A stretch of DNA of 64,000 nucleotides, taken from NCBI GenBank assembly GCA_017499595.2, contig CM038998.1:496001-560000 (forward strand), read 5' to 3'. Under the pieces are notes generated by a model. That model was not told the DNA's origin. It made no database searches and was given only the letters and a program-made list of their open reading frames with translations. Numbering within the stretch: the first letter of the stretch is position 1; every line of letters starts with the position of its first letter. Positions 28,937 to 59,378 of this stretch are shown piece after piece. The DNA comes from Psilocybe cubensis. Its lineage: Eukaryota. A program made the translations under genes and the position numbers.

Positions 28937-29605
28937 TTCTTATAATTATACCATCAATCTAATCTATGTAATGATCTTCACGTCAGGTCTAATCACATTG
29001 TAACGACCAATTTACTTGTCTTATTTATAGTATTGTGTCCATATAGAAGCCAGGCACCTCGCCGTCAGTTCTCCGAATCTTTTCTCTTGTGGACAACTCC
29101 CTTCAACTCTCTGCGCTGGATAAAAGGTTAGATGAAAGGTTCAGCAGCGGAAGAAGAAGATAAATTCAATTATAAGAGTTGCCGCCTTCTGAAACCTCCA
29201 TACCGTTGCTGTGCCGTCGGTTTCACCCCTAAGTGTATGTCAGTATCCTCATCTAAAAATGCGACAAAAAATTTCCCAGCGACTTCCGTACCCATCATGA
29301 CTTTTACTGGCACTCTTCAGGACAGATGGGGCATGTCAGATTTTACAAGCTGTTGTAGCTATTTTGTATAAGATATCAGTCAAAAGTCCTCTCCATCAGC
29401 AGATCATACCACAGATGTCGCAGGTGACACGGCCCAGAGTGTTCTAATGCTGTGGCCTGACCTCAAACGGAAGAGTGTACATGCTGTCCGTTGTAATTTC
29501 AGCCACTCTTCAACGGCATATATACATGGTTTCAAATTCAGTGACAACTTTAGGAGGGTGCTACTGGTTATACAATAGCTTTCCTTCATCCCGTCGCTAC
29601 TAGAA

Positions 29606-31234
29606 ATGGCACCATTAGGAGAAGGACCCAGCTCAGCACTTGATAGCACATTTGGTGCTATGTTGATCGGAGGTGAGCTCAATAGACGTGTTATTTCCTC
29701 ATAATTCGGAAACCACCTTTACACAAACCACTATACTAGTTTTCTTTGCCATCTTTTTCCAAGGGGTTTTATCATTCCAGGCTTGGAACTACTATGAAAA
29801 TTTTCCAAATGATCCACTGAAATTTAAACTTCTGGTGGGTGTATGATCCAAGGCCCAACTCAGGCCATCCATAATTCCTGTTTCCTGACACGAAAATTAT
29901 ATTCAGGTGTCGGTAGCATGGTATTCCAAATTGAATAATTCCCATGTGTCAAACCAACTAATAAATATTCAGGGGGCTAGATACGATACATACCGTTATA
30001 ATTTGCCAGTTTATGTATCATTATTTGGTCACAAACTGGGGCTTCCAGGCTGCACTTGTCGATGCCACTACGGAACTAATCATTCACATTCTTTTGGTTG
30101 GGATGTCGTGCTTCGTGTGCCAAGTCTATTTTATGCATAGGTGAGTTTGATGCTTATTTTACAATTATATTTCTTATTAGAATACACCAGAATTTGGATC
30201 CTGAGCGAGAAAAAAATACTGGTTCTTTGCATCGCCCTCGCCCCCAGCTTGACCGCCCTCATTCTCAATATTCACCTGCCTTTGAAAATGATATTTGCTC
30301 ATTTTTCTATTCCCGAGTTGGTCCTGACAGAGAAGGAATCTGCAGCTTTGTATTTTATCAGCGCGCTATGTAAGCACCGTGTTATGTTCCATGATATCCG
30401 ACTAACGCACCGCAGCGGATGTTGTGATAGCCGGATTCTTGTGTTACTTCCTAAGGTTATCCAATCGTCGAACACAATTTCAAGCGTATGTAATAGGTGC
30501 CACTTCTTGTTGAAATGTTTACCTAAACTACTACAGAACTCGTTTGGTTCTGAAGGACATTCTACATTACGTAGTTGCAACGGGAATTTTGACCAGTGCT
30601 TGTGAAATTGGAGCTGTTATTGCGGTGAGCTTGACTTATTTCACAATCAGCTGATACTAATTCCAGATCTAGTATTTTCTTCGTCCAAACGGTCTATACT
30701 TTGCTGTTCGTAGAACTTACTCAAATCACACTATACAAAGTGACATTTTCTTTAGGCCATACATTTTTCGTTGGGGAGATTGTATACCAATTCACTCCTT
30801 GCAGCGTGCGTAGACAAAATCTCTCCCAATACATTTCGTGCTGATTAATTGTCCATTTCAATCAGGTTAAATTCACGCAAAAAGATCAGAGACAGACTTC
30901 AGGGAAATGCTTCGGGCATCGGACAAAGCATTCATAGTCACGGGGCTGGCAAACAGAAAGATATACATATGGTATCTATCAAGGCAGCTTCAGATGAAGT
31001 ACCTGAATCCAAAAGAGTACCTCAGGTACGTATTATAGTATACTTACTTAATGAATGGTTTAGGCATACTTATATCTTTCTATCAAACAGGCGAGCATGG
31101 TGAGGCCGTCCGAAATAACGTTTACTGTAGAACGGGTCATTCAGGATGATAACGGAGACACTTCAAAACGTAACTCAGACCAGAGAGCACATGCTATTTG
31201 GCAAACATCTACTGACTATGAGCGCCGAACTTGA
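29606..31234 (+). CDS. DUF6534-type multi-pass membrane protein, copy A
   Basis: MAPLGEGPSSALDSTFGAMLIG, QAWNYYENFPND, MYHYLVTNWG, DVVIAGFLCYFL, HFSLGRLYTNSLLAALNSRKKIR; many short exons. Confidence 0.8.
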
Positions 31235-36558: not shown

Positions 36559-37294
36559 TGGATTTACTCATGATTGGATGTATTCGTAATGTCGCAATCG
36601 ACGATATCTTGATGCCGAACTCACGAAACATTCAAATCCATCCTAAAGATCAGCTTAAGTTGAACCACTGTTGTATCGACAGAGATGCTCAGTTGAGCCT
36701 AAATGTCTGTTTAAGATCATGATCATGTCTACTGCTAATGATGATTCCCAGTAATTCCCGCAAGAGCATGAACTCCGCAGCAAGGTGTATCCTCAGTCGG
36801 GTTGGAAGTTGACCATCAGAAACAACTTGGTGGGGATTGACGGGCAGCGGCAGCGGTTATCCGGTTCAGCGGTGATGTGTCCCTGTTTTCTCTACACGTG
36901 CGAACTAATAAGGCAGTGCGTTCACTTAATATAGGTTGAATATCCCAGAGATTCATGGAAATTCCTGCTCATGAGTTATGTTGCTGATACTCGACGATTG
37001 AGCATGTCATGTTACTTACACGCCGTTGTTATCGTTCCTTACTACTATCAGTCCGGTGTTCTGCCTTCATCTGGAAAATAATTCCACAGATGTCCAAAAT
37101 GGCACAGTCCAGGGTGAAGAACGTCGTTTGAGTGGGAAATTAAGGCTGACCCACGTTGTCGCACCTCGGTATTGGCTCAGCATCTGTGTCAGAATAATGT
37201 GATATATACCCACATTTTCTGACGTTTACAGGAAGTGTACTGTGGTATCGTCGCCAACATCTCTCTTTCACTCCCACTTTTACGCTCCTTAGTC

Positions 37295-38955
37295 ATGGCT
37301 CCCTTAGGAGAAGGACCCAGCTCAGCACTGGATAGTACATTTGGTGCCATGTTGATTGGAGGTGAACGCGGTGGACTCGATCTATATCTTAACATTAAAA
37401 CAATGAATGTCATCCAGTATTCTTTGCCATCTTTTTCCAAGGAATTTTGTCTTTTCAAACATGGAATTACTTCGACAATTTTCCAAATGACCCACTGAAG
37501 TTCAAACTACTGGTAGGTGTTACTAGTCAAAGGCAAATGCGCCACATGGGTTACGGTATCTCACAAGTCCTGTTTCAGGTTTCGGTAGCATGGTAATTTT
37601 TTCGACTGGGATTGCTCACTCTTCAGATGAACCAAGTTCTAACTTGCCAATCTGATTTATAGGAGTTTGGATACCATACACACGGTGATAATTTGCCAGT
37701 TCATGTATCATTATCTGGTCACAAATTGGGGATTTCAACCGGCACTGGTCAATGCCACTCATGAGTTAATCATACACATCTTATTGGTCGGGATGTCGTG
37801 TTTTGTGTGCCAATTGTATTTCATGCATCGGTGAGTGACATGCTAGTAGCTATAGCTATCGTGGAGCTTGGACTCAATTTTATAACAGAATTTGGGTTCT
37901 GAGCAATAAAAAGATATTAGTTCTTTGCATTGCCCTTGCGCCCAGCTTGACGGCCTTGGTACTCAACATACACCTGCCGTTGAAGATGATCATCGCGCAT
38001 TTCACTATTCCGGAGCTGGTTTTAACTGAGAAAGAGTCGGCGGCTCTTTATTTCATCAGTGCTCTTTGTAAGTCATGATTGTATATCTTTCGAACGAAGC
38101 CTTACTCTAAACGCTTAAATTCATCCAGCCGACGTCGTGATTGCTGGGTTGCTGTGTTATTTTTTGAAAGTTTCGAATAGTCGTACAAAAATTCCAGCGT
38201 GAGCGATAATTAATGTATCTGGACGATAGAAGACTGATTGTATTTCCTCAGAACACGTCTAGTACTGAAAGACGTCTTTCATTACGTGATCGCAACGGGT
38301 ATTCTTACAAGTGCATGTGAGATCGGAGCTGTAATTGCAGTAAGAATTCTTCGTCAATTACCTAGTTTAATTCGCTAATCCAGAAATGAAGTATTTCATA
38401 CGACCAAATGGCCTTTACTTTGCTGTATGTATAGTATATACGTCATCTTGCAGATTGACTAATTTTCCTAGGCAATACACTTTTCATTAGGGAGATTGTA
38501 CACCAACTCGCTACTTGCAGCGTAAGTTCTATTTTCCATCACCGAATTATTTACGACGATCACTAACATAGCTCGATAAAAGATTAAATGCTCGTAAGAA
38601 AATGAAGGACAGGCTCCAACCAAGAGGTCCCAATATTGTTCGAGGTGTCAATAGTCACGGGTCGACCATCACGCAGCCAAATATGCATACAGTATCCATA
38701 AAGGCGGCTGAAGGTGATGATTTTGATGGCAAACCTCCACAGGTATGAGAAATTGGTTGCATAGCTGGGATATAATCTGAACAATTTTTCTCGAATAAGC
38801 GAACAAAGGCACGTCAATCTGAAATAAGATTCACGATTGAACGAGTTATACGTGATGATGATGGGGGAGTTGAGCAGCGCAGTGTAGATCGCCATGGAGA
38901 GAGGTCGTATGGAATTTGGCAGACATCAGCTGACCATGAACGAATCAGAAAGTGA
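37295..38955 (+). CDS. DUF6534-type membrane protein, copy B (close paralog of 29606-31234)
   Basis: Identical N-terminus MAPLGEGPSSALDSTFGAMLIG, matching exon structure, GRLYTNSLLAA-LNARKK, C-terminal IWQTSADHERIRK*. Confidence 0.82.
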
Positions 38956-41006: not shown

Positions 41007-41460
41007 GTGGAAAGGAATGGACATGGGGATGATGGGCCCCGTGTATACTATGTGATTCTGTCCACTTTCATGGCGGCGTTGCTTTTCAGCCTTGTATATG
41101 ACCATACTATAGGATAATATTTTTCAATAGTCGAAAGAAATATTGTCAGAAGGGCAAAAAACAGGATAAGAAAGGAATGTGAGTAGGTAATCAGGCTATG
41201 CCTATTCCGAAGGGTATTTTGAACCGGAAGAAAGCTTTCTCACGAGATGACACGAGTTTTAATCTAGGACCGTCGCATGTCTCTGAACTTCTTCCATGTT
41301 CAAACTGTTCATGGTATAGACCCGCCGTTATCTCTGATTCTAGCTGCAATTCTGCCAAGTTCCATCTTGAGACGACTTCTTTATACGTGAGGTATTAGCT
41401 GTCACCATCCATTTTAGCTGTAGCTTTTTTTTCCATTGCTTGGTTTTACACTCGGCACAT

Positions 41461-41504
41461 AGATACCAAGGGATGGAAGGCAAGATACCAAGGGATGGAA
41501 GGCA
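41461..41504. repeat. 22-bp direct tandem duplication upstream of protease copy 2
   Basis: agataccaagggatggaaggca x2; only one related copy upstream of protease copy 3 (~57500). Confidence 0.85.
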
Positions 41505-41630
41505 ATAAGACGAAGCATGTGTGAATGCCGCTGATAGCAGTATTCTTTTCTTGCTATTCTCTAATTGCTTTAAAGAACAAAGTCCAGCCCGTTTACCTTC
41601 AAAGGCGTACTTCGACTCCATTGGCCTATC

Positions 41631-43389
41631 ATGCTGAAAACAATTTTCTTTATCGCACTCCTGGTAGTCGAGTTGGCAGGGAACCCAATACTCGTTGAAA
41701 GGTCCCCTATTAACCTACCCATATCTCGTCGGGCAAACATCACGGGTGGTCTTGACCTCTTGAAGCGTGACCGTGCCCGGGTCGGATACATTAAAACACA
41801 GGCCGTCTCGAGAGGACCTGCAGATTTGCGGTCTGTTCGCGATTTTTTCGATTTCATTGACTACGACGGGGTTGGCTACGTTGCCAAGGTCGGCGTTGGT
41901 TACCCAACTACATATTGTAAGTTTTTATTAAACTTCAGTACGATGGTAGCCTGATTCCCCTTATTGATTCCCTTATTGTCGATACTGGAAGGTATACTGC
42001 CGTTCTCTTTTTTGCAATGACAACTTACATCAGTCAAAAGTTCAAACACATGGATTGGAGCCGGCCGACCATACGAGAAAACCTTTACCAGTCACAAGAC
42101 TACGTACCGGGTGGTAGGTACCTCATTTATAGGCTTTGCTCAAAGAAAAATACTGGCAAAAACAATGTCATTAACCCTTATCCTCAGGAACTCAATTATG
42201 GATCGGGATCCATCTTTGGAGACGAATATATTGACAACTTATTCCTGACTCCGAGCCACGTAGTCGCACGGCAATCTATAGGAGTTGTTAACAAGGCATT
42301 TCACTTCTGGTATGTTAAAGTTTAAACTTGCTGATTATTCATCCCAGGCGAAAGGATTTGAGGGTGTGGATGGTATACTAGGGTACGGATACATCTGCTT
42401 AATTAGCTCGGTTTCACATCATTATATTTGACGCTTTCTGATGAGTTAGAATCGGTCCTGTTAATCTTACTTTGGGAACCTTGTCTGACAATAGCATTCG
42501 AGTCCCAACTGTGACGGACAACCTTTTCTCACAAGGGACAATTTCTTCCAATGAAATCGGAATAACCTTCCAGCCAACCACTGCAACTGATGAACATGGT
42601 GCTAAAGGAGTAATAACCTGGGGTACGCTCATTAATAAAGTACCCAGGCCGGCCTCATTCCTCATAGATTGACGTAATAGGCAGACCCGACTCGCACTGG
42701 TTCACAGGCAATATTTCCTACATGTAAGTAATCGCATCGCTGGGGGAAACTATGCATCGAAACCATAATTTGTTTCCCCCAGATCGTTGACGAACAAATT
42801 TCCTTCCTCTGAATTCTGGGGGTTCGACCATTCTATCCGATATGGCTCATCGACCACAATTCTGTCCTCTGGAACTGGAGTCGTCGATACAGGTTCGTCA
42901 ATGCTTGTGTACAAAATGGGCCATAATTTGATATGAAAGCGATTAGGTGCCACCTTTATTCTGCTCGCCCGAGATGCATTTAACAGATACCAGGCTGCTA
43001 CAAACAGTCAGCCCGATAGCAATACTGGCTTATTAAAGCTACCGGCTTCCAGTTACAACAGTCTAGAAAGCTTATTTTTCTCTGCAGGAGAAGTGAGTAA
43101 CATGTAGAGTTGATTCCAGCAAGTACCATTTCTCATTACCGTGACCTTTCTCTAGCATACTTTTGAATTTACTTCCAATGCGCAAATATGGCCTCGATCG
43201 CTAAACGCTGACATAGGCGGAGTCGCTGGAAGCATTTATCTCATTGTTGCGGATGCGGGAACTCCGTACCCCTATGGAGACGTTGCTTACGGCTATGTTT
43301 TTCTTCAACGATTTTATTGTGTATACGATACCGCAAACAGGCGCCTGGGTCTTGCAGAGACAGAGTTTACAAGAGATACATCCAATTAG
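41631..43389 (+). CDS. A1 aspartic protease, copy 2 (possibly a pseudogene: defective splice sites)
   Basis: Signal peptide, YVAKVGVGYPTT, LIVDTG, GVVDTGAT, FLQRFYCVYD. The acceptor before the DTG micro-exon reads ttattg instead of ...ag (~41966), and one donor is gcattt (~42296). Confidence 0.8.
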
Positions 43390-44977: not shown

Positions 44978-45803
44978 TTATTTTGAAGATCGTTTAGGTC
45001 GACGGGCCACCCGTCTCCATAATAGTATCCAAAGGGCTCTAAGCAAGCCTATCGGCGGTACCAACCAGCTCAATCGCCATGACCAACCTGATTGCTTCTC
45101 CAGTTTCTGTAGCAGGCCATCAATGTGTCGTTCGAGGTCTTGTTTAGAACCAGAATTGTCGATGACAATATCAGCGTAGGCAACTTTCTCCGTGATTGGA
45201 AGTTGGGATTTGAGACGGGATGTCGCATCTTCGCGTGACGATCCGTCCCTGAGCATGAGCCGCTGCAACTGCAGTTCCTCGGAGCTTAAAAAAGTCGTGT
45301 CTTAGTCGATACCGTTCTAGCAGCAAGACATTGTAGAACAAATACGCACCAGTACACCACAACGACCTGAGCAACCAACTGCCATAGCCCGCCTTCAATC
45401 AGCAGAGGAACGTCCATTACGCAATACTTGTGCCCTCTTATCCAGAACGCAAGTACTTGCCAGAGCATTGCCTTTCTCACAGCAGGATGAACTATCGCAT
45501 TCAACTGCTTCCGCTTGCCCTCGTCGTTGAAAATGATGCTCCCAAGTTTCTTCCTGTCAAGCGCGCCGTCAGGAAGAAGTACGTCATCCCCAAACGCCTT
45601 CTTAATCTTCTCCAGCGCAGGCATCCCAGGTTCGACTACTTCGCGCGCAATCACATCGGCGTCGACGATGGGGACGTTGGACGCTTTGAGCATCGACGAC
45701 ACTGTTGACTTTCCGGTGGCAATACCTCCTGTTAGGCCTATCACTGCGCCTACGTTATTGCCCACGAGCTAGAAGAGACGTGAGGAGAAGGAGTACCAAG
45801 CAT
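44978..45803 (-). CDS. CAB5: Dephospho-CoA kinase (CoaE family)
   Basis: ML|VIGLTGGIATGKST P-loop, DADVIAREVVEPG, LDRKKLGSIIF, LNAIVHPAV, DVPLLIE, QLQRLMLRD, ADIVIDNSGS. Confidence 0.92.
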
Positions 45804-46003
45804 TGTTGTAGTTCTGTGGCGCTGGGACGTGGGGTATGGTAAGTAGTCAAAGTAAGAACGTGCACTCGGTAATTTGGAACACCGGGAGACCCTGCGAGAG
45901 CATTCTCAAACTCCGAGTCTAGCCGGTCTCGGCAAGCTTAACAACAACACCATAGATTTAAACACGAAAGTAGCATACCTAATTTATAGCTGCTTTCATA
46001 TCA

Positions 46004-46680
46004 TTACTTGGATTCCACGGCTCTGTGTTGCGACTTGTTTGACGAATAACTGTAATCACAATCGATATATGAGCAGCATGCAACAAGTTCCGTAAGATTG
46101 CTCCAGTCTACGTCAAGGCTGTCTAGCTTGACGTATGGGACGTTCAGAATGAGTGATTCTGCCTTAAAATTCAAGTCAGGCAATGAATTGGAGCAAGAAT
46201 GTATTTTCAACGTCTTCAAGACACATGGTGAACCAAAGAAATGTCCTATGGAGATACGAGTAAGTATAGAGTAGCTCACGCGTAGGCTGAGATAGTGACA
46301 ACGACGAAGAGTTTCGACGACGACGTCTGCTAGAGGGATGAAAAATTGGAACATTTCTGTCCGATATGTTCCATATTCTTCCACGAGAAAAATTGAAAGA
46401 AAAAGTTTTCTGAAACGGCCAAGCCACTCAATCGCAAGGCCCACAGGCGAGGAGAGTCCCAAGCAATATTGCGCCATCGTTGACATACGGCACCTAGAGG
46501 AAGGAAGCCCTTGGGCTGGATACAAGGGTCGAATCTTGTGGCACTGCCTGGTTCGATGTAGAGCTGGAATATGTATGCAAGCACTTCAGCCGGCATCCGA
46601 TCAGTTACATTCCTGGAGCTTTGCTGGTGAAGCTGAGGTAAGGATATTTCCTCGGAAAGTAAAGCTTGTGGAGTCGACAT
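46004..46680 (-). pseudogene. F-box gene relic, 5' half, frameshifted and deleted
   Basis: RMPAEVLAYIFQLYI...LPLGAVCQRWRNIAW...LW in one frame, then LAIEWLGR...LDVDWSNLTEL in another; homologous to 34849 and 39312 but truncated. Confidence 0.8.
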
Positions 46681-46984
46681 GTGCAGAGACCAATTCTTTG
46701 AAGTTGCAAGTTGGAAGGTGAGCGTGGACGTAGGTGTGAACTTGTTGATTTGATTGTTCTACAGACTATATAGTCTATTTTCAAGTCAAGGTTAACCCGC
46801 CTCCTATCTAATTATAGCGGCTATCGGTCAGCTTCAACCTCCGCCCGAACTCCGCACGGGTCTTTTACCAGTGACGAATCAGGGCGACTCGTACCATTCA
46901 TTTTCGAATCAAAACATACAACCTCACACAGAAGTTTTGACTAGGCTTTAAGTCAATTTCATGAAAAGTATCGATCCTGATCAT

Positions 46985-47200
46985 TGCACAAGTTGGAATA
47001 CCAGGTGGGTTCAGGTGTGTCGTCTCTATCTCTCTGGCCGTTTTCAACGCTCCCCTTGTGTGGATATGCTACCGAGTGAAACTGATATAAAGAACTTCGG
47101 GGTGATGAAAGAAGGTTTGAAGGTGGCTGGAGATGGGAATAGGAATGGGAATGGATGGCGATCTTGGGTATCATGAAGTCTCATGAAAGCGTTGCTTTGC
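46985..47200 (+). pseudogene. F-box gene relic, 3' part and downstream flank (paralogous to 40445-41085)
   Basis: gtcgtctctatctctctggccgttttcaacgctc (47019-47052) nearly matches 40475-40509; gatataaa...ggttt..aggtgg matches the copy-2 stop region; tcatgaaagcgttgcttt resembles 41068-41085. Confidence 0.7.
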
Positions 47201-47265
47201 TCTGCTAAAGGGTGACACCAGCCCCTGCCAACGGACACTTCAAACCGTAGAGAAAAATGCATAAA

Positions 47266-47307
47266 CACAGCTTTCGGTTTTTCCAACATCAGAGATTTAG
47301 GGAAAAT
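47266..47307 (+). repeat. Left imperfect terminal inverted repeat
   Basis: cacagc-N15-catcagagatttagggaaaat. Confidence 0.65.
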
Positions 47308-47700
47308 CTTATCGTACAATATGATGTGATATAATTTGTATAATATGCTATCGTTGCGGCTGGAAGTGGTGTAAGTATTATACCACGGATGATAGTATAC
47401 CATGAGGGTTGTAATGTGATGATATAGCCAATGTCATGTAGAGCCGGTCTGCCAAGACTTTATCGCCTCGGGTCGGTATTACAACAAAACGATCATCTGT
47501 TGTAATCTATATGCACAATTCCATTGGATTACACCTACATTATGGACTCGTTGTCATAATGATATCTGGTACATCTACTTGCTACATTTCTGATTTGCTG
47601 TGATCGTTATACCACATTCTTACACGCGTTCTTAAGGGTAATTGAATAATTCACGTGCAAACAATTTATATTTCTGTAATCCAAAAACAATCTACATAGC

Positions 47701-49464
47701 TTACGCACTCCCTTCCCCCGCATGCACCGCACGCGACTCACGAAGCATGGAAAAGGGAGAATCTTCATCATCTGAATCTTCTCCAACTTCAGTTGTGACC
47801 GGTCCATTAGGGAATACCATACTGCATATAACAGATCAACAAAATTCTCAGAATTAAAGATATTAAACTCACTCGTTCCACCATTTCAAGAGTTCTGTGA
47901 TGTGCTTTTTGTGCTCCTCTGAATGCTGGCGTGTATCTTCAAAATAATCCACAACAAAGTTGTAGAGACGACTAAAGTTGATGTAATAATATTCATCTTG
48001 CCATTGAGTTGCGTCGGTAAGATTAAATATCAACTAGAATAATAATTGAGTAATTATAAACAATAAAGAAGTGATAAAAACTCACAATGACCGCAGCATA
48101 TGCAATTGTGCGAGGGGTTACACGTCCATCCAACCCGATAATAGCCGCAACAGACCTTTTTGTTGCCTTCCGAGACCGACGAAAATTGGCCAGACGCATG
48201 GCACCAACACCCACTGTATCATCGGGATGAAAGGCTTCCGCTGATGCCGGGCCAGTGAATAGGGCACAGTAAGTCTTTGAACGATACATTAAATTCTGTT
48301 ATATTAAGGATGGTATGCAACGTACCTTGACTAAGAGTGTACTTCTCAAAAACAGATAGTCGAGGGAATGGCCATCTAAACAATGATTTCGAGGATACAA
48401 TGCACCCAAGAAACATGTTTTTCGGAGACGCGGTTTCAAGTCTACATCACCAGCACACACCTTGGCCCTAACACTAAAAAATGAATAGAGATTAGAAGGG
48501 TGATACTTTGATAAATTACAACATACATTTCGTTTGACCAGTCATGCATAATAGGACAAAGCAACCGGCCAGTGATTGTGTTTTGAAGGCCTCGCTGATC
48601 CCTGCTCTTTGTGAAAAAATGCTGGCTTGGGTTGTACATTTGGTTCAGAAATGTAGCGACTTCTTCCTTCATACGGCGTACATCGTCGGATCGTGCAGCA
48701 TTTCCCTTTTTTTCAACATTACGAAGAAAGGCTAAATTGTCAGACTTGACTCGCCAGTCAAACGTAGGGCTGAGAATTGGGCGCAGAGTTGGAACGTAAC
48801 TGAGCAGTAGTTTGAAGCTTTGAAAGTTACGAATGTGGCTAAAAACAAAGTCAATGTAGCGGCTGTAAAGCAAAAAAGAAGAGCACGTACTTGGTAATCT
48901 GGCTAGCAGTCATGCTGAGTGTCTCCGGGTCCAAATGATGCACATCCTGGGCAAGATGAAGAGTTTCAATACTATCAAACAATGAAACAGCCTTTCGAAG
49001 GCAACGTCCTTCCGCATGGCCATCCGAATCATCCCTAAACATTAGCAGGAGTTTTAAAATATACAATGACAATACTTACTGCAACGCAGCCCATGGACGA
49101 TGCCTTTTTGCTCCAAGCTTGGCCGTCAGATCCTCATTTAATCTTTTAAGACTAGACACTTCAGCCCTCAGTTGCAAGCGAGTGGGTGATTCCTGTGACT
49201 GTTGACTAGATGATGAGCCAGATGATGGTGGCTGGCCTGAATACGATGTCGGAAAGCTTGGTGGTAGTGGAGAGTGGCTATAAGGGTCATGATGTTCTCG
49301 AGACCCATGCGGCCCACGGATTGGCGTTGATCCTGGTGCTCCACCTGTCAAGTAACACAAAAACATTAAAGAGAGAATAGATAAGAACACAGTGCAAGCC
49401 ATTGCATACCGTAATCATCAAGTGGGTCTCTTCCTCGATGTCCTCCCCCATATCGACGGTCCAT
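47701..49464 (-). CDS. DUF6698-type protein inside the transposon (intact, multi-exon)
   Basis: MDRRYGGG start; ARSDDVRRMK, RGLQNTITGRLLCPIMHDW, FLRSTLLVK|TYCALFTGPASA, GRVTPRTIAYAAV, LYNFVVDYFE, LLKWWN-MVFP; exons splice in frame. Confidence 0.8.
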
Positions 49465-49922
49465 GCTATACAGGATAGGATGATGAAAGATAAAATTTTG
49501 TATTGGTTTTAAACCGATAGAAACAGGAGTAGCCATAGGCTTGGCCTTGGGTGCGGAAGGCGGGAAATGATTAACATTCTATGGAAATTTTCTACGCCAC
49601 TTACTGCAGTGTGTTTCTGGGCTCAAAAACCTCTGTGCCAACGTGGATAAAGCCATAGAAAGAGACATAAAGGAGGAGAATAAAGAAATAGATGAGGTGG
49701 CAAGGTGGTAGTAATGAATCAACAATCTGTAGTGTGACAATCGTCTGAGATCCACACTGTGGGAACAAAATTGATGGCTGAAAATTACACCATTTGAAGA
49801 CGTAGCCAAGCTTGGATAAATTTCTCCTTTAAATCTACATTCTAGCATCGTAATTCCATTCTAACATCGCAATTGCACGAATATCTACTACACAAAACCA
49901 CACATAACCCACAGAGGCAGGC

Positions 49923-50792
49923 ATGCCCCGGGGAATCTCCACCAATGTCTATCCAGTCATTCTTTCTTCTCGAACTCGAACAATACGTGACGAGGTTATT
50001 GAAAGCTCCCAAGTTGAAGAATGCGAGGTAAGCATTTTAAAATTTGTGTAAAAAGGAAAAACTTTACTTACTTTAATGAGTGTATACAGTTGCACATACC
50101 ACCTGCTTCTGTAGGAGATGACTTTGACATTCACAGCGAGATGGGGCCAGCTGTAGTTGCTGATTGCTCAATAACTAGCAATACTTTGGATAGTGATGAC
50201 GGAATTGTTATCTTTGAAGACCATTCAAACGGAGCTGTTGAGAGAGCCGTTGAGGAGGAAGATGAGATCAACAGATCTATTGAGAGAGTTGTCGAGGAGG
50301 AAAGTCAGCTAACTGTCGATTGGTCGGAAGAGTCAATGGAACGTCACATGGCCAATCTGTTTGGCCTCGATACTCAAGAACACATGGCACAGTTATCTCA
50401 GGAAATTCGCGAAGCTGTGGAGCAAGAGATGGCTGCAAATTGTATCAATACTGGCAAGTTATAGATTTGTTTCGTTACATACCGATTCATTGATCACTGA
50501 TATGTGTCAACTTCTAGCTTCTGCATGCTCCATGGACCCAGCACAAGCTAGCGAAACTGAAAACAAGTCAGATCACAATAATCAGAGACCAAAAATCATA
50601 CCGATTTATCATTTCACACCCGTCGACTTCCCTGAACCACCCGCGCCATTACGCCTTGGGACTCCACGATGCAATGCGGGCAAAGCGGCGCGTAAAGCTC
50701 GAAAAATAGCGGCTGAGATTGCTACATTGGAAGGTGTCTTGAATGACTTGCGCAAGCGCCATAGACGCTACTTGAGGGAATCATACCTGTAG
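49923..50792 (+). CDS. Hypothetical acidic/coiled-coil protein inside the transposon (3 exons)
   Basis: MPRGISTNVYPVILSSRTRTIRDEVIESSQVEECE|LHIPPAS...MAANCINT|(GC donor gcaagt)ASACSMDP...IAAEIATLEGVLNDLRKRHRRYLRESYL*; divergent from the DUF6698 gene. Confidence 0.6.
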
Positions 50793-50850
50793 ATAAAATG
50801 GGCTGGTCAGTACATACTGTAGCAAACAAAAAGCTTGTACAAACCAAAGC

Positions 50851-51260
50851 GTGTTATTTCTCCTTCCTACTAAGTCGGTTGAGCCTGAGCCGAAGCAGCA
50901 GCAGAAATGTTGTATCTGCCTTGACGGCCTGTCTGCATCGATAAGGCGTTATGGTTGTCAATACTTGTCGACTCCGAAACTATGTCGTAATTGCAGCTCC
51001 CACATCCGCACACACGCCAGCACCCGAGTCAACCCTTTTTCCGCAAAACACAATGGGAATGCTCTTGCAGACGCGCTCAAGATTGCGATGCCAGTGAGGG
51101 ACGTTTTTGTAGGTGAGTGAGTATGAATGGAGGTGGCACGGGGGTTGATGACGAACTGAGTGGGTTTGGCGGTGCAATGGGTGGTGTGCATGGCGAGCCG
51201 ATACAAACTATCCGAAGACCCCAACCAAAAGGTCATCCTAGACGGCAAACGCGAGCGACG
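50851..51260 (+). pseudogene. Cys-rich coding relic truncated at the PDA1 junction
   Basis: CCICLDG...CRNCSSH followed by broken frames ending DPNQKVILDGKRERR exactly where the PDA1-derived sequence begins. Confidence 0.35.
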
Positions 51261-51320
51261 GTTCAGGGCTGGTCGTTCGCAACACCCCCCTCTTCAATGT
51301 AAGACGGCAAACGTGAGCAA

Positions 51321-52215
51321 TGGTTCAGGGCTGGCCTTGGCCTCCTCGACGGTGGCGTCGACCTCAGCCTTGGCCTTCCTGTCAAGCTGCTTAAGCTCCT
51401 GCTCGTTCGCAACACCCCACTCTTCGATGTATTTCTGGAGACTACAGATGGGGTCCTGGGTAGAACGCATACGCTGGACTTCCTCACGGGTACGGTAGGT
51501 GGTTCCTGGGTCGAACATGCTGTGGAGTTGGGTCAGAAAGCAGTTTACACGAGGTAATTTGGTAAACGCACGAGTGTCCTCCATAGCGGTATGTCACGAA
51601 TTCAAGGAGAAGAGGACCATTCTGGTTGTCGACAGTCCACTTCCTGGCATACTCAACAGCATGCTTGGTGGCGAGAATATCCATTCTGTTAACCTATTAC
51701 AACAGATGAACAAATGAGCATCAGTGCAATGAACACATACGGGAGAAGCAAGAACCACGGAACGGTAAACCTACCTGGAGACCAGGGATTTTGTCACCGC
51801 GCTTAAAGTACTCGGTGTTGGAGGACGAGCGGGCGGCAGAGGTACCCATACCCGTACTTGTTGTTTTCACATACAAAGACAGTGGGCAAGTTCCACAATT
51901 TGGCCTATAGAGATGCAATGTATTAAGGAAACAGGAATATATGCGCAATTAATGAACGCACCATGTTGTAGGCTTCAAACACCTGTCCCCGGTTGCTGGC
52001 CCCATCATCATACAGAGCGAAAGTGCAGGTCTTCTCGCCCATGTACTTCTGGGCGAAGCTGACACCAGCACCATTGGGTACTTGAGCACCGACAATAGAA
52101 GGGATAAAGATGTGCATCAAACCACCCTTTCCAAGCGACATGCTGGCCTAGGGTGGCAGCGGTAGGTGGTGATGACACAGTCATCTTTGGTGATTCCGTG
52201 TTCAAGGCCAATTGC
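51321..52215 (-). pseudogene. PDA1: Captured, degenerate fragment of pyruvate dehydrogenase E1 alpha subunit gene
   Basis: [110 protein letters not shown]; ends EAKASPEP. Internal deletions, a frameshift and three retained introns. Confidence 0.93.
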
Positions 52216-52440
52216 TGAACGGGATGCCACACAAGATGTGCACGCAAGAGATGAGTAGATGCGGGTGAAATCCTGGAACAGAGAATGACGATGAGAGACG
52301 TGTCACGATGGGTGTATTGGACTGATACTCACTACCACAACGGCTGCTGCTAAACTAAAGCACAGTGTAATGTCTGACTCGGAGGTGTCGTTCTAGGGTG
52401 ATGAGAAGGGTGTGATGGAGCAGAATCCATGGCAGCAGAA

Positions 52441-52524
52441 CCCTTGTTGTCCCCTCAGTCTCCCTGAAATCCCCAGCCCAGGGATGATCCATGGTTTTTC
52501 AGGGAAGCTGAGGGGTAAGAAGGG
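52441..52524. repeat. Imperfect ~28-bp inverted repeat upstream of the transposase
   Basis: cccttgttgtcccctcagtctccctgaaa (52441-52469) vs rc of 52497-52524 cccttcttacccctcagcttccctgaaa; outer catggc/gccatg extends it to 52428-52537. Confidence 0.7.
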
Positions 52525-52708
52525 CACGGTGGCCATGTAGATCTGTGCAGTATGAAGAGAACAAACATGGAACTGGCGCAAGTTGCGCAAGTGACATGTC
52601 ACATGACTTGAATGTGCGCGCGCGTCGAGTCGTTTACGCCTAATTTTCCTGCCTTGCTGCTTTATTGCTACTTATTCTACTCTTGCTGCACAGTAAAGCC
52701 TTGATCTT

Positions 52709-55700
52709 ATGGCCCAGTTCATATGTCCAGCCCCTGGTTGCCGTAAATCGTTGTCACGCCAAGTTGGCCTTACAATGCACATGAAATCGTGTCCGCATCT
52801 TCGCACCACACGCACACGCGCCCATTGCCACTCCGAATCGTATCAAACAAACGAGGATGAAGCACCATTTTCTGGATATGGAGATGAATCATTAGATCTG
52901 GGTCTTGAGTCCCCCAATCCACAACAAAGAAGGTCTCGGCGACTTGCTAATAGGAAACCTATGCAAAATATGGAGCCCATACCAATTGCACCACCACCTG
53001 CTGCCCCACACAATCCTCAGCCAGTACCTCGATGTGTGATACTTCATGTTCTGGACCGTTATGACACTCCTATGGACACTTTTAGAGTGTGGAGACACTA
53101 TCCTCGACGTCCTACCCGTGATCCTGATTTCTGTATTCGACCATCCGATCTCGCCAAACAGCCACCAATTATGCCCCTGCTACAGACCGTTCAGGACACA
53201 TTTCACTCATATATGGAAGGTCTAGCACCTACAGTCCGTCGGTTAATGACCTGGGCAAATAACGGTCAAACAACCAAGTCTCATGAGCAAATAAATGAAC
53301 TGGTTCATGATGTCTTGCTGGCAGACGATTTTAATCCAAAAGACCTCATTGACTTTGAGGCCCGAAACCAGAATGCAAAGTTGGACCAGGCCATAGCAGG
53401 TTCCGCCTTGCGAAGTCAATTTACAGAAAGCTCTGTCGACATTTTGGTTCCATCGGGCACAGTTAGCAGGCCGCCGGTGTCATACACAATTCCTGGTCTA
53501 CTTCATCGGTCTATCACATTTATTATTTCGGAATTCTTTACTGGCCCCCTTGGACATCTTGTCCACTACTCTCCTTTTGTTTTAAAGCAGCAGTCCGCCT
53601 CGAATCGTGAAGAACGGTTGTTTTCAGAGGTTTATAACTCTGATGCATTTCTTGAGGTACATGACTATATTCAGAAACATGGGCTCCTGCCACCGGGTCA
53701 GGAAGACTGCCAACTGGAGAGGGTTGTTGCCGCTGTTATGCCGCTATCAGATGCAACACATTTTACAAATTTTGGAAACGCAAAAGCATGGCCTATCTAC
53801 CTGATGCTCGGAAACATTAGCAAATATGTTCGGGCCGTTCCTGGGTCAGGAGCATTGCAGCACCTTGCATATATCCCTTCAGTACGTGTTTGCATTCTGA
53901 TATCTCTTTGACTATTTGCTCATATATTAGGCAATTAGCTTCCAGATTCATTCAAGGACTTTGCCGCTGAGCATAACACCAAATGGAAAACCCAAAAAAG
54001 CCAAATTCTCACTCACAGTCGCCGTGAGCTTATGCATAGTATCTGGTGTCACCTCCTCGATGACGAATTTGTTTATGCATATAAATATGGCATGGTTATC
54101 CGCTGCATTGATGGCATCATGCGACGCATATATCCACGCATTTTTACATATTCAGCAGACTATCCTGAAAAGTATGTGCAGTTAACTTGATAATACTCTA
54201 AAGTGCACTGAACAGGGCCAATTTCTAGAGTGCTTTTAGCAACTATTAGAGACAAAGGAATGTTTCCTTGTCCTCGTTGCATGGTACACCGGTCAAAACT
54301 TGATTTAATGGGTCTCTATCGAGATCTTCAAACTCGAGTCAAGCAGCTGCGAACATTTATGGTAGAAAAGGTCAAAGCTGCTCGTGATCTTATATATCGA
54401 CAGGGATACGGAATAAAGAGTCAGCAGGTTGAAGATCGGCTTCAGGAATTTTCGGGTGTACCAACCCAGGTATACAACCGTCTTTCTGTGCACAATCATA
54501 TTTTAACATCAGAAACCTACAGAATGCATTTGTTGAGAGGCTCAATCTAGATCCGTCACCAATGCTAGCACCTGACATTCTTCACGAATTTGAACTCGGA
54601 GTCTGGAAGTCATTGTTTACGCACCTTATACGTATTTTGTATGCTGCCTCAAAGGGGTCCGATGATCTAGTCAGTGAGCTGGACAAAAGGTATCTGCTAC
54701 AGAATGGGCATTTTCAATGTAAACTGACGGGTATGTTCTCCTTTTATAGATATCGTCTGCTCTCAACATTTGGTCAAGGTACCATACGAAACTTTTCAAA
54801 CAATTCGTCAGAAATGAAGAAACTTGCCGGGCGTGATTTTGAGGATCTTCTCCAGGTAATATCATTCATTTTATATATAAATTGAGGTAGAACTGACAAA
54901 AGTGCAGTGCGCTGTTCCAGTCTTTGAAGGGCTACTTCCAGAAGCAGATGACTATCGCCTCAGAAAACTTCTCTATCGAACAGCTGAGTGGCATGGCTTG
55001 GCAAAGATGCGCATTCATACAGAAGGCACTTTAACAGAATTGGAAAAAGTTACCACAGAGTTGGGAAAACTGATGCGAGGCTTTCGTGACCTTACCTGCA
55101 GCCATTATGACACTCATGAACTGCCGCGAGAGATTGAAGCACGTACTAGGCGTGAAGGAAGAAAATCAGCCCATGCTTCTACCGCAGCAGTACTACCAAG
55201 CTCATCTGAGGTATCAATACCTACCATAGTGCCCAAGCCAACTCGTAAACCCATCAAATTGAACCTTTTTACTATCAAGTGGCACTTCTTAGGCGATTAC
55301 GTGGAATATATTCGTCGCTTTGGTACAACTGACTCATATTCAACACAATTAGTATGCTTCAATTTCAGACATCTATAATCATTACTGACTAGAAAATTAT
55401 GGCAGGGAGAACTGGCTCATCGTCTCATCAAGTCTTTCTACCGCCTGACCAACAAAAAGGATGCAAACAAGCAAATTTCAAAGAAGTATAACCGTATGAA
55501 TGCTTTACAATTGGTTGATGCTAGTCAGATCAAATCTGAGAAGAATGAAGCTGACGCAGCTGCTCAAGACAACAAAACTCACTACATCTCTAAATCCCAG
55601 AATCAACGTGTCCCAATTTTTTCATTTATTGCGGACAAAGATCCTGCTAAAGTGGTACGATAATTGGGTTTTTAATACCACTAGCTGTTTGACAATCATA

Positions 55701-56620
55701 TTTGTTCTTAGAACTTCCTACCAAAACTGCAAAATCATTTGCTAGCCCGCCTGTTAGGACAGAAATTCGATGGCGACACTGATGAAATGTTTACAAATGA
55801 AGATCGGTATACAGTGCGTATCGTCAACAATACTATGTATCGTGTCAACACACTGCGCGTCAACTTTACTACATACGACATGCAACGCTCATACGACACA
55901 GTCTCACGGAACCAACCATTTATAATGCTTCACTCACCCGAGACGGAGCCTGGTACTCATCCATTCTGGTATGCCTCAGTAATGGGAGTGTTTCACGCCC
56001 AGGTCCAGCATATTGGCCCATTATCAACTGATCTTGCCCCCCAACGGATGGAGTTTTTGTGGGTTCGCTGGCTGGGCATAGAGCCAGGTTACAAGTTTGG
56101 CCGCAAACAGGCCAAATTGCCCAAAGTTGGATTTGTGCCAGATTGTGACGAAATGGCGTATGGATTTTTGGACCCGTCTCTTGTTATTCGGGGCTGTCAC
56201 CTTTTGCCATCCTTTGTTGATGGTCGAACAAACAATTTGCTTACCATCACCACTCCAACAGAAGCACGATGCATTGGCGAAACTGATGATTGGTGCAACT
56301 ACTATATCGGAATGTAAGTAAAGGTTTCTGATTTCCATGCATTATATTGAAGATATGATTGCAGTTTTGTTGACCGTGACATGCTTTCTCGTCATTTCGG
56401 GACTGGAGTTGGACACACAAACCGCACCGGTGCTGCTGATATTGACGACCATGACAATGATGACGATGATGAGACAATGGAAGATTGCTCTGGGATGGGA
56501 GAATTTGATAGCATGGTTGAAGTGGACACCAATTCAAGTGACGAGTCGGAGAGTGGGGGTGAAAATTCGGAATCAGATACTGATCTGAGTGAAGGAGATA
56601 ACGGATACGATGACCTGTAG
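52709..56620 (+). CDS. Plavaka transposase (PF18759-type), apparently intact
   Basis: N-terminal CPAPGC...HMKSC Zn finger; EVYNSDAF; SDATHFTNFGNAKAWPIYLMLGNISKY; YSADYPEK; CPRC; DILHEFELGVWK; KLAGRDFEDLLQ; KWHFLGDY...FGTTDSYSTQL|GELAHR; HPFWYASVMGVFH; FVDRDM...GVGH; introns splice in frame. Confidence 0.9.
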
Positions 56621-57094
56621 CCTGGGATAATTTCATGCGTGTATTTTGCACAATCGTTACATCTCAAATGAGTAGTACGTTGAGTTCAGAGTTGACCGAG
56701 CTTCTATGACGCAATCCTTCGACTCGCCTTTGAACATGGCTCCGGTATGACATCATAAAAGCTCAGGTGTCGATGCTTATAATTTGTTACCATTATTACC
56801 TCTAAGCGGCCGTTTAAACATAATAATGATTCCTACTTTACAGTTATGCAGTATAGATGACAAGACATGACCAGATTGTTATAATTCTGGCAGCTGAATG
56901 ATGTGGTGGATATAATGACAATATCATCATGATATTCCAATGATAATGTGGCGGTCAGCATTTCATCACATTATAACACACTGTCTGTATGATCATCACT
57001 GATAATTTGAAATCAGTGAGATTTTCACCAGATATGGCATCATAACGCCCAAATAATTATGGCAATACGCTACAGGTAATGTATTTGCTGTCGT

Positions 57095-57141
57095 ATTTTC
57101 CCAGAATCCCTGATGAACTTGCCTACCTTGATGATGCTGTG
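57095..57141 (-). repeat. Right imperfect terminal inverted repeat
   Basis: attttcccagaatccctgatg-N20-gctgtg; reverse complement mirrors 47266-47307. Confidence 0.65.
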
Positions 57142-57629
57142 TAACTAATTTTGCTTTCTTGTGTTGTAGAAAAATAGTCAGAGGGTAGGGTTGGACCATG
57201 CGAACCTTGCTTCGGGACTAGAAGCTGAACAACATTCGGGGTATCTTCTTGAACAATAACAATACTCTCCCACAGAATGACACAGATTTTAATTTCAGGC
57301 TATGCCATGTCTCTGAACTTCTTTTGTCTACAGACTGTTCATGGTATAGACCCGCCTCTAGCTCTAGCTCTAGCTCCAAACTGCTCCAATTCTGTTTGAT
57401 ATAACTTTTATCAACGTGATATCAGCTGTCGCCATCCATTTCACCTGTATCTCGACCCATTCACTGCCCGTTCTCATATTTGGATCATTGAGATTATGAG
57501 CCAGAAGGGATGGAGAGTCCGACGAAACATGTGTGACTGCCGCGGACCAGTATTTTTCCTGCTGGCATTCTCCAATCCTTTAAATACCCAACAATTTATC
57601 TCAAGCACATTGGCTTGCTAGCCGCCATC

Positions 57630-59378
57630 ATGCTGCACACGATTTTCCTCATCACAATCCTTGTAGCCGAGTTGGTAACAGGGAATCCAATACTCATCAA
57701 TAGGTCTCTTATTAACCTACCCATATCTCGTCGGGCAAACATCACGGGCGGCCTTGACCTCCTGAAGCATGACCGTGCCCGGGCAAGGTACATGAAAGCA
57801 AAGACCATTGCTAGAGTATATGGAAATTCATTTCATACCCTCGACGTTATCGGCGAGCCAGTTGAGAACGATGAAGTGGAGTATATTGCCACCGTTGGCG
57901 TTGGTAGCCCACCTACATATTGTGAGTGTTTCTTTAATGATAGTAGGATTGTGGCCTGACTCTGCTTATTAGACTCGCTTGCTGTTGACACTGGAAGGTA
58001 CACTCATACTGTCGTTATTTTGTCCTCTTTCCAATGACATCTTACTACTTCTACAAAAGTTCAAACACATGGATTGGAGCCGGTAAAGCTTACAAGAAAA
58101 CTGGCACTAGTACCCAGACTTCAAATCAGGTGGTAGGTAAAACACACTTACGCGCGTCGCTCAAAGAGACCTAGTATTTGGTGACCAATCATGCTCAGGA
58201 TGTAGGATATGGATTGGGATCCTTCTCGGGAACCGAATATCTTGACATGGTCACCCTGGCTCCTGGCCTGGTAATCAAAAACCAATCTATTGGAGTCGCT
58301 TCAACGGTATATGCTTCCCACCTTAATGCTGATATCTCTAATTTCAAAACAGTCGAAAGGATTTGAAGGGATAGATGGAATTCTAGGGTATGTGACGTAC
58401 ATATACTCAGATTTTTACAGAAAACGTCTGAAAATTTCTAGAATCGGTCCAGTTGATCTCACAGTGGGAACTTTGTCCGACAAAAGCGTTCGAGTGCCTA
58501 CTGTGACCGATAACCTTTTCTCACAGGGGGTTATTTCCTCCAACGAGATCGGCATCTCCTTTGAGCCTACAACTGGCCAAAATAAACATGACGGAGTGAT
58601 AACCTGGGGTGCGTTGGTTAAAGTACTCAGGTCACCGTCATTCCTCCTTCTCATAGATTTCACATTACAGGCGGGACCGACTCGACCAGATTTACGGGTA
58701 CTATTTCCTACATGTAAGTAATCCTCTCACTGAAGAAGCTACTCATAGAAGGCATAAAAAATTAAAATATGATACGTAGACCTTTGACAAAGACATTTCC
58801 TGCCTCCGAGTTCTGGGGTATTGACCAATCTATCCGATATGGCGCGTCAACTACAATTTTATCCTCTGGAGCTGGAATCGTAGATACCGGTGCGTTATTA
58901 TTTGCCGATGCAACACGAGTCGATATCTTACCTGAACGGAATAGGGACCACGCTCATCCTTCTCGCCACCGATGCATTTAACAAATACCAGGCTGCGACT
59001 AAAAGTCAGCCCGATAGCAATACCGGCTTCTTAACGCTGCCGGCCTCCAGCTACAGCAATTTAGAGAGCTTATTTTTCTCTGCAGGGGGAGTGAGTAATT
59101 CAATATCCACAACCGATACCCATGTCTCATCGTGACCAAATGTCCAGCATACTTTCGAATTTACGTCCAACGCCCAGATATGGCCTCGCTCCCTGAACAC
59201 CAACATTGGTGGAGTCGCTGCAAACATATATCTCATCATCGCGGATGCGGGTACAGACGCCCCTGGCGACTTCGTTAACGGTTTTACTTTCCTCCAACGA
59301 TTTTATTCTGTATACGATACTGCAAATGGGCGTGTGGGTCTAGCGCAGACCCCCTTCACCAAATCAACATCCAATTAA
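57630..59378 (+). CDS. Secreted A1 aspartic protease, copy 3 (close paralog of copy 2, canonical splice sites)
   Basis: MLHTIFLITILVAELVTGNP, YIATVGVGSPPT, LAVDTG, GIVDTGTT, VNGFTFLQRFYSVYD; promoter homologous to 41240-41630. Confidence 0.92.

Follow-up and report, generated by a model that had tools for sequence, protein, structure and literature searches.

The window examined in this study is a stretch of 64,000 nucleotides from Psilocybe cubensis (assembly GCA_017499595.2, contig CM038998.1, positions 496,001 to 560,000 of the forward strand), and all coordinates are those of the window. It contains a DNA transposon of the Plavaka group, PlavakaB-type, and within this element lies a broken piece of a core host gene, PDA1, which encodes the E1-alpha subunit of pyruvate dehydrogenase (PDH). 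An earlier reading, made from the sequence alone, had described about 0.9 kb of PDA1 at 51321-52215, antisense to the transposase of a fungal transposon, and had proposed that it was captured as DNA and is non-functional. Here we show that the fragment is enclosed by the inverted ends of the element and was copied from genomic DNA, and we provide indirect evidence that it has been copied together with the element to a second chromosomal site. The features that carry this argument are the following.

47287-57115, + strand: the whole Plavaka (PlavakaB-type) DNA transposon, 9,829 bp, defined by inverted ends, target site duplication (TSD) and empty site
47285-47286, no strand: left TSD, AA, read directly; the joint at the empty site keeps a single AA
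57116-57117, no strand: right TSD, AA, read directly and from the empty-site joint
47287-47310, + strand: left terminal inverted repeat, starting CATCAG, which agrees with the reverse complement of 57092-57115 at 18 of its 24 bases
57092-57115, - strand: right terminal inverted repeat, finishing CTGATG, which pairs with 47287-47310
51322-52215, - strand: PDH E1-alpha (PDA1) pseudogene fragment, equivalent to native residues 112-370
51520-51571, - strand: retained PDA1 intron, 52 nt, skipped by the spliced native mRNA contig, CT..AC on the + strand
51692-51772, - strand: retained PDA1 intron, 81 nt, skipped by the spliced native mRNA contig
51904-51960, - strand: retained PDA1 intron, 57 nt, skipped by the spliced native mRNA contig
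51851, - strand: frameshifting one-base insertion in the PDA1 fragment, visible as a change of frame in the translation alignment

In addition to the assembly and its public annotations, we used four public sequencing runs (X8, X9 and X13, DNA; X11, RNA), which were aligned to 45500-59000 of the window at 80% likeness.

Comparison of the window with the native PDH E1-alpha (P0004, 401 aa) by tblastn gave a series of collinear minus-strand matches between 52215 and 51315 (summed E 3e-107), and an exon-by-exon comparison found 209 of 227 aligned residues to be identical (92%). Together these confirm the extent given by the sequence-only reading and its orientation, the fragment being on the minus strand and the transposase on the plus strand. 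The Pfam family E1_dh is matched both by the open reading frame (ORF) at 51294-51593 (E 1.2e-18) and by a 205-aa public model of the fragment (E 3.2e-58). The fragment is without native residues 1-111 and 371-401, and native residues 134-155, which follow YRCHP, have no counterpart in it. The FFGGNG motif is also deleted, leaving a gap of 6 residues where native reads and contigs restore 18 bases at 52097, and the fragment has DDG where the native protein has GDG, the thiamine-diphosphate/Mg cofactor motif of E1 enzymes. All three of these defects had been noticed beforehand; the frameshift is a further one. The extra base at 51851 is absent from 48 of 98 X13 reads and from the native contigs of X8, X9 and X11, including the native mRNA. 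With a partial domain, DDG, two deletions and a frameshift, the fragment does not contain the full-length domain of a functional PDH E1-alpha, and its sequence demonstrates that it would be unable to encode the enzyme. Public annotations name it 'pyruvate dehydrogenase E1 alpha' (models of 205 aa, P0002, and 194 aa, P0003); as a practical point, the genes annotated under this name at these fragments are not such genes.

The donor can be identified. An intact PDA1 of 401 aa is located on a contig of 4,186,456 bp, and the transposase of the window (P0242) on a contig of 4,675,579 bp. In X8, a native genomic contig of 10,268 bp (record 7) aligns without a break to 51323-52149 through all three introns, and its alignment extends 61 letters past the deletion at 52150. 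It differs from the fragment by 33 other letters in 827 (96.0% identity) and by 19 gap letters, namely the 18 FFGGNG bases at 52097 and the single base at 51851. An RNA contig of 1,352 nt from X11 (record 1, depth 193) is the native PDA1 mRNA, and it skips 51520-51571, 51692-51772 and 51904-51960, each bounded by CT..AC on the plus strand and therefore by GT..AG on the strand of the gene. Since the native mRNA skips exactly these stretches, the fragment holds the native introns at the native positions, and because the introns are retained and the native genomic contig aligns unbroken across them, the fragment was copied from DNA and not from mRNA. The proposal of capture at the level of DNA is thus borne out by the genomic contig and the spliced message together. 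A parental gene, as expected of a transduplication, is represented by native contigs and spliced mRNA in X8, X9 and X11 at about 96% identity, introns included. The possibility that the window simply holds the native or syntenic PDA1 locus is contradicted by the position of the native gene on another contig and by the roughly 4% of letters that differ.

The ends of the element were located by a scan around the transposase gene, anchored on published Plavaka termini. According to section 3.2.2 of Kojima 2025 (PMC12730594), PlavakaB families have the termini 5'-CATCA..TGATG-3' and generate duplications of 2-3 bp. The pair 47287/57115, which was the best among 35 CATCA-anchored pairs (corrected chance 0.003-0.02), has these termini and is flanked by AA on either side. 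A 3-bp reading of the duplication (AAC) is arithmetically possible, with 'both' equal to 3, but it would move the ends off CATCA. A generic repeat finder returned no long inverted repeat at the element ends. The ends are independently marked by the empty site, in which 47284 is joined to 57116 with 9831 bases skipped (9829 + 2), and which was found in all three DNA runs. In X13 the joint is carried by 32 reads with 25 start places; because the flank depth is 34-38, nearly all X13 chromosomes must be empty at this site. In X8 and X9 the empty site is present in one contig each (record 5, 1,474 bp with one other letter; record 11, 3,087 bp). The element is therefore present or absent as a unit among strains, with a clean 2-bp footprint, and the fragment (51322-52215) is situated between its inverted ends (47287-57115), as transduplication requires. 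This disposes of the concern that the fragment might lie outside the true element boundaries.

A relative of the element was found at another locus in X9, within a contig of 71.9 kb (records 12 and 13). Its alignment starts at 47286, passes directly from 48517 to 54766 and ends at 57115, so that it shares the termini of the element but has lost internal sequence. This deletion derivative is about 97% identical to the element and is non-autonomous. RNA of X11 covers the element only at 47304-48656 and 54520-56774, at low depth, mirroring this derivative, and X11 record 2 is a spliced sibling transposase mRNA comprising 3' exons. Since the RNA covers just the parts that the derivative retains, including the spliced 3' exons of the transposase, a derivative of the X9 type or a close sibling is transcribed. 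Depth of X11 over the PDA1 exons is wholly accounted for by the native mRNA contig. The X11 strain seems to lack the fragment and says nothing about its expression, and no RNA run was among the runs listed as containing the element stretch.

Several observations indicate that the fragment moves with the element. In one annotated genome, an identical 205-aa model of the fragment occurs under two accessions, KAH9476131.1 and KAH9486085.1, on two contigs. Each is followed, in accession order, by a transposase that bears the next number: KAH9476132.1 on a contig of 3,050,190 bp, where the second locus lies around JR316_0011703, and KAH9486086.1 on the 4,675,579-bp contig of the window. The two transposases differ at 4 residues and by an 11-column gap in 1117, and a second assembly also contains two transposase versions with the same 4 differences. 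Moreover, X13 is essentially empty at the site in the window, yet 50 of its 98 reads at 51851 hold the extra base of the fragment. Because on two contigs the accession of the same fragment model directly precedes that of a near-identical transposase, we conclude that fragment and element have travelled together; consecutive accessions, contig counts and the X13 reads show indirectly that both were copied to a second chromosomal site. The fragment differs from its donor by about 4%, whereas the element copies differ from each other by about 0.4% at the protein level, and capture therefore preceded the latest transposition. An X8 contig of depth 26.9 carries 38 additional letters at 52243-52245, just upstream of the fragment, pointing to a 38-base indel between the window and the other carrier copy.

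The PDA1 piece is one patch in a mosaic of about 1.2 kb (51028-52215) in mixed orientations. By their sequence matches, the patches comprise PDA1, an exon piece of a Ran GTPase gene and at least two further short pieces of host genes. The members of the mosaic other than PDA1 are as follows.

51028-51116, - strand: piece of the host Ran GTPase gene, 89 bp, matched by an RNA contig of depth 735 and by single-copy DNA contigs
51117-51197, no strand: piece of another expressed, single-copy host locus, 81 bp, to which separate contigs match from 51117
51215-51259, + strand: piece of another expressed host gene, 45 bp, matched by an X11 RNA contig that is unlike the window beyond both sides
51240-51301, - strand: mini-duplicate, with an internal deletion, of the junction between the 45-bp piece and the PDA1 3' end, 62 bases, seen as direct repeats D1 and D2

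The contigs that match the Ran piece show 4 listed differences from it and diverge from the window beyond both of its sides. The frame across this piece (75 aa) reads ...TYKNVP.WHR...; a word-based protein search with it returned nothing, and an exhaustive phmmer search then gave 550 matches at E<=0.001. The best 150 of these 550 all fall within query residues 7-73, and 8 of 8 sampled matches carry Pfam Ras and have Ran-like sequences. A direct match of the frame to Pfam Ras was below the cut-off (E 0.0042). The 81-bp piece is matched by contigs with depths of 18.8 in X11 (RNA), 23.4 in X9 and 38.2 in X8, with differences at 51149 and 51155; its end at 51197 is placed by one X8 loose end, and it matched no Pfam family. 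The 45-bp piece looks p24/emp24-like, and its last 20 bases run straight into the 3' end of PDA1, with the junction at 51321/51322. In the mini-duplicate of this junction, direct repeats D1 and D2 are each 91% identical, to 51302-51334 and 51399-51431. A variant arrangement of the 3' junction, with a joint 51361>51289, is present in 27 X13 reads and in one X8 contig (depth 20.5).

The remainder of the element has the content of a transposon that may be able to move itself.

52775-56617, + strand: Plavaka transposase gene with introns (P0242, 1128 aa), placed by tblastn of the public model
48442-48909, - strand: exon of a DUF6698 accessory gene, left arm, matching Pfam PF20414 at E 3.7e-11 over profile positions 3-62 of 206
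50018-50792, + strand: two overlapping open frames from the ORF list, the '+ strand cargo gene' of the sequence-only reading

The transposase model aligns to the window in three collinear blocks with 0, 1 and 2 mismatches (tblastn), and its match to Pfam Plavaka PF18759 has an E of 2.7e-33 and a score of 116 bits, where the cut-off is 26.3, over positions 65-318 of the 325 in the profile; the first exon alone matches the same family with E 4.7e-11. Two introns, 55352-55405 and 55654-55710, are confirmed by the spliced sibling mRNA of X11 (record 2). Aligned with 13 homologues, P0242 retains the invariant residues D320, C455 and C458 (a C-x-x-C pair), D539, H542 and E543. The transposase gene looks intact and the element looks autonomous. 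The PDA1 fragment and the transposase gene stand head-to-head, with some 560 bp between the fragment and the start codon. In the left arm, the DUF6698 gene probably spans 47600-49414; the family is uncharacterised and found in Agaricomycetes, and its member here may be a Plavaka accessory gene. The frames at 50018-50792 are absent from X9 and X11 and are present in X8 (record 6) with one difference in 1103 bases. Neither these frames nor the other small frames of 50797-51302 and 52008-52671 matched a Pfam family, and an Rfam scan of 47000-57400 returned nothing at E<=0.1.

Between the PDA1 fragment and the start of the transposase gene, a motif at 52464-52512, within 52440-52540, is common to several other loci, with 62-106 loose-ended X13 reads at each listed boundary and 2-3 contigs in both X8 and X9. 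It lies within a hairpin-forming stretch (DNA fold of -23 kcal/mol, z -3.65) that has no Rfam match. X9, which is without the full-length element, still matches approximately 190-260 bases of 52265-52715, including a 39-base motif at 52464-52502 that recurs in many reads derived from other places.

How the fragment has fared since capture can be judged from its differences from the native gene. Its three 3' exons differ from the native mRNA (X11 record 1) at 18 of 449 letters, and the remaining 378 letters, consisting of three introns and one exon, differ at 15. Exons and introns have thus diverged equally, and neutral decay therefore fits. Within 51353-51698, 12 of the 14 listed differences between native gene and fragment are A or T in the window and G or C in the native gene, and 8 of these 12 fall at native CpG sites. 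The observed/expected ratio of CpG is 0.67 in the fragment, 0.77 in the element and 0.91-0.92 in the flanks. Methylated transposon DNA is prone to C-to-T change, and the pattern fits what deamination of methylated cytosine in a silenced transposon would produce.

Taken together, we consider it likely, with a probability of roughly 0.85, that the fragment is a pseudogene produced by transduplication, in which genomic PDA1 DNA of about 0.9 kb, exons and introns alike, was copied into an autonomous-looking, PlavakaB-type cut-and-paste element that carries it as an inert passenger. We propose that the patches of the mosaic may have been written in while a break in the element was repaired, through template switching or filler-DNA synthesis on ectopic templates. 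Following capture, the fragment would have decayed neutrally, mostly through C-to-T changes of the kind seen in methylated transposon DNA.

Some points weigh against this interpretation. The capture mechanism is deduced from anatomy alone, and the p24-like label of the 45-bp piece comes only from a by-eye translation of loose ends. That the fragment adjoins a transposase at the second locus is known from accession order and contig counts alone and not from its DNA, and a segmental duplication is possible. The 14 differences used to judge the decay are the best-supported rows; 887 more are spread across the whole aligned stretch, and the 14 are possibly unrepresentative. The sequence-only reading had pointed to sibling elements as a check, and one outcome is stronger than that check called for: a near-identical second element, on another contig, carries the identical fragment model. 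A family member that keeps both arms but lacks the mosaic, which would represent the state before capture, was not found. The only fragment-free relative, in X9 (records 12 and 13), is without 48518-54765 entirely. X8 has native letters only over 51363-52264, which could reflect either a sibling lacking the fragment or the popping of assembly bubbles, and we count it neither way. We rejected X8 as evidence of a sibling without the fragment, since assembly can collapse a paralogue diverged by 4% and X8 also has a contig with the variant junction.

Among other explanations, the one that survives best accepts the capture and changes its route. It has been proposed for Pack-CACTA elements of Arabidopsis (Catoni 2019, PMC6379663) that a gene comes to lie between two neighbouring elements and, once one of the inner ends has been lost, the DNA in between becomes mobile. 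Plavaka is related to EnSpm/CACTA (PMC12730594). The PDA1 piece, as one genomic stretch of about 0.9 kb, would suit this route. The surroundings of the piece would not: the mosaic joins at least four patches, one of about 0.9 kb and others of 89, 81 and 45 bp, which match different contigs and lie in both orientations, it includes a duplicated and partly deleted junction, and the 10.3-kb native PDA1 contig matches the window over the PDA1 part only. Repair with filler DNA gives short patches with micro-duplications. Because the patches are short, lie in both orientations and include a duplicated and deleted junction, we favour template switching of the repair type, and we regard the flanking-element route as unlikely.

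A second alternative holds that the second locus arose from a segmental or assembly duplication, such that the fragment never moved as cargo. It draws on the nature of the evidence for that locus, which consists of accession order and contig counts. Set against it, three runs show an empty site with a clean 2-bp footprint, which demonstrates that the element moves as a unit, and another locus holds a deletion derivative whose termini are exactly the same. X13, without the insertion in the window, has fragment-specific reads at approximately single-copy depth, and in the second assembly, too, the transposase occurs in two versions set apart by those 4 differences. We find it quite improbable that duplication explains the two copies.

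It is also conceivable that the copy borne by the element has been exapted, and that the essential PDA1 is modulated by a product of this copy, either an RNA (antisense or small) or a truncated protein. The sequence-only reading had raised the RNA version of this idea: a pair of plus-strand ORFs is present upstream at 50018-50792, and by geometry alone, read-through from it would be antisense to the fragment. The fragment is 96% identical to the native gene with long perfect-match runs, annotators have called an open model of 205 aa, and the same family is transcribed, as the spliced sibling transposase mRNA in X11 attests. However, exons and introns have diverged alike by about 4%, 10 base differences in the last exon go with 6 altered residues out of 66, and a frameshift and two deletions are present, all of which fits neutral decay; the identity of the two fragment models is accounted for by a recent second copy. 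Exaptation therefore strikes us as a long shot; the fragment is most likely a functionless passenger, with an effect of its RNA on PDA1 possible by geometry only. As slim a chance attaches to the idea that the element samples highly expressed host genes (PDA1, Ran and others) as templates for RNA silencing, or that host-like sequence shields the element. In the first case, carriers would down-tune essential host genes in trans, and in either case the insertion polymorphism among P. cubensis strains would bear a metabolic phenotype. Finally, that the fragment is an artefact of assembly, or the native locus mis-assembled beside a transposon, is scarcely credible, as independent raw reads (50 of 98 at 51851) carry the private letters of the fragment beside the native ones, at least half of the words sampled from 50000-57500 occur in 8 runs from 3 studies (0.83-0.96 of them in some of these runs), the fragment has been called in two public annotations, and the native gene has a place of its own on another contig.

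Plants offer the classic examples of transduplication, and the new gene structures and regulatory RNAs that arise there when cut-and-paste transposons capture and shuffle pieces of host genes have been studied in depth. The sequence-only reading had called the event in P. cubensis a 'Pack-type' capture, and this description holds in part. The mosaic at 51028-52215 consists of merged chromosomal gene fragments that have been mobilised, and in this it resembles Pack-MULEs and the Pack-CACTA elements of Arabidopsis (PMC6379663), in which several unrelated host gene fragments with introns are merged between transposon ends and relocated; Pack-CACTA, with its CACTA/EnSpm-related transposase lineage, is the nearest plant counterpart of Plavaka. 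However, Pack-TYPE elements are non-autonomous by definition (Catoni 2019, PMC6379663), and here a full-length transposase model of 1128 aa lies inside the same ends. The element further differs from those described there in its accessory genes, in a TSD of 2 bp instead of 3 bp, and in ends of CATCA instead of CACTA.

The closer match is with transduplication, for which we follow the definition as quoted in Manning 2013 (PMC3538342). That paper describes the first fungal transduplication, by hAT and Tc1/Mariner elements of Pyrenophora. The ascomycete cases comprise a hAT element of Pyrenophora tritici-repentis with a histone H3-like sequence (Manning 2013, PMC3538342) and, from Dhillon 2019 (PMC6710886), hAT elements of Pseudocercospora and related fungi that hold histone H3 sequence. 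In these, as in P. cubensis, a housekeeping sequence is found between the inverted ends of a transposase-encoding transposon, is copied along with it and shows decay of the C-to-T type. As reported in those texts, they differ in that the carriers are hAT elements (Tc1/Mariner once), the whole coding sequence was taken, and copies number from tens to hundreds. In P. cubensis, by contrast, the carrier is a Plavaka element in a basidiomycete, the cargo is a partial, intron-bearing gene together with tiny scraps, and two carrier loci are known. Plavaka elements with extra genes beside the transposase have also been described: according to Kojima 2025 (PMC12730594), those of Agaricus and Gymnopus carry a TET/JBP dioxygenase, and those of red algae carry the PAG1-3 cassette (bioRxiv 10.1101/2025.02.11.637652). 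These share the transposon lineage and terminal features of the element studied here, yet by the same accounts their passengers are whole genes that probably serve the element, whereas the passengers in P. cubensis are broken core host genes (PDH E1-alpha and Ran) with no plausible service to it.

In the literature covered, which was partial, we found no description of host gene-fragment capture by Plavaka, and captures of host fragments in fungi were on record only for a few ascomycete hAT and Tc1/Mariner elements. Transduplication is a known kind of event of which the Plavaka instance has apparently not been described before. The case adds the Plavaka lineage, and a mushroom-forming basidiomycete, to the fragment-capturing systems. 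It is also unusually clean, in that the exact ends, the empty site, the donor gene, the introns (proved by mRNA) and a second carrier locus are all available, and its mosaic of several donors bears on the mechanism of capture. Its autonomous appearance and its variable presence among strains make the element a tractable fungal system in which to watch capture and its consequences.

The neighbourhood of the element has features of its own. To its left, a stretch of approximately 50 bases (46763-46813), upstream of an F-box-like gene, is covered by 174-251 loose-ended X13 reads, far over the local depth. Nearly all of these reads share the same flanks, one side of which has a GCGGCCGC site followed by a T run, and 271 of 296 X13 reads insert TA behind 46775; the stretch looks to be shared with a high-copy or construct-like sequence. 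On the right, the element is inserted just upstream of one of two paralogous gene copies, 41219-43100 and 57249-59098, which lie about 16 kb apart and are 73-83% identical in six blocks (window repeats D1 and D3-D7), with a third, weaker copy near 14661-15711. By the look of their ORFs, the paralogues may encode a secreted aspartic-protease-like protein. Farther to the left, direct repeats at 29601-30154 and 37290-37844, about 7.7 kb apart and 80-85% identical (window repeats D2, D8 and D9), are probably paralogous genes.

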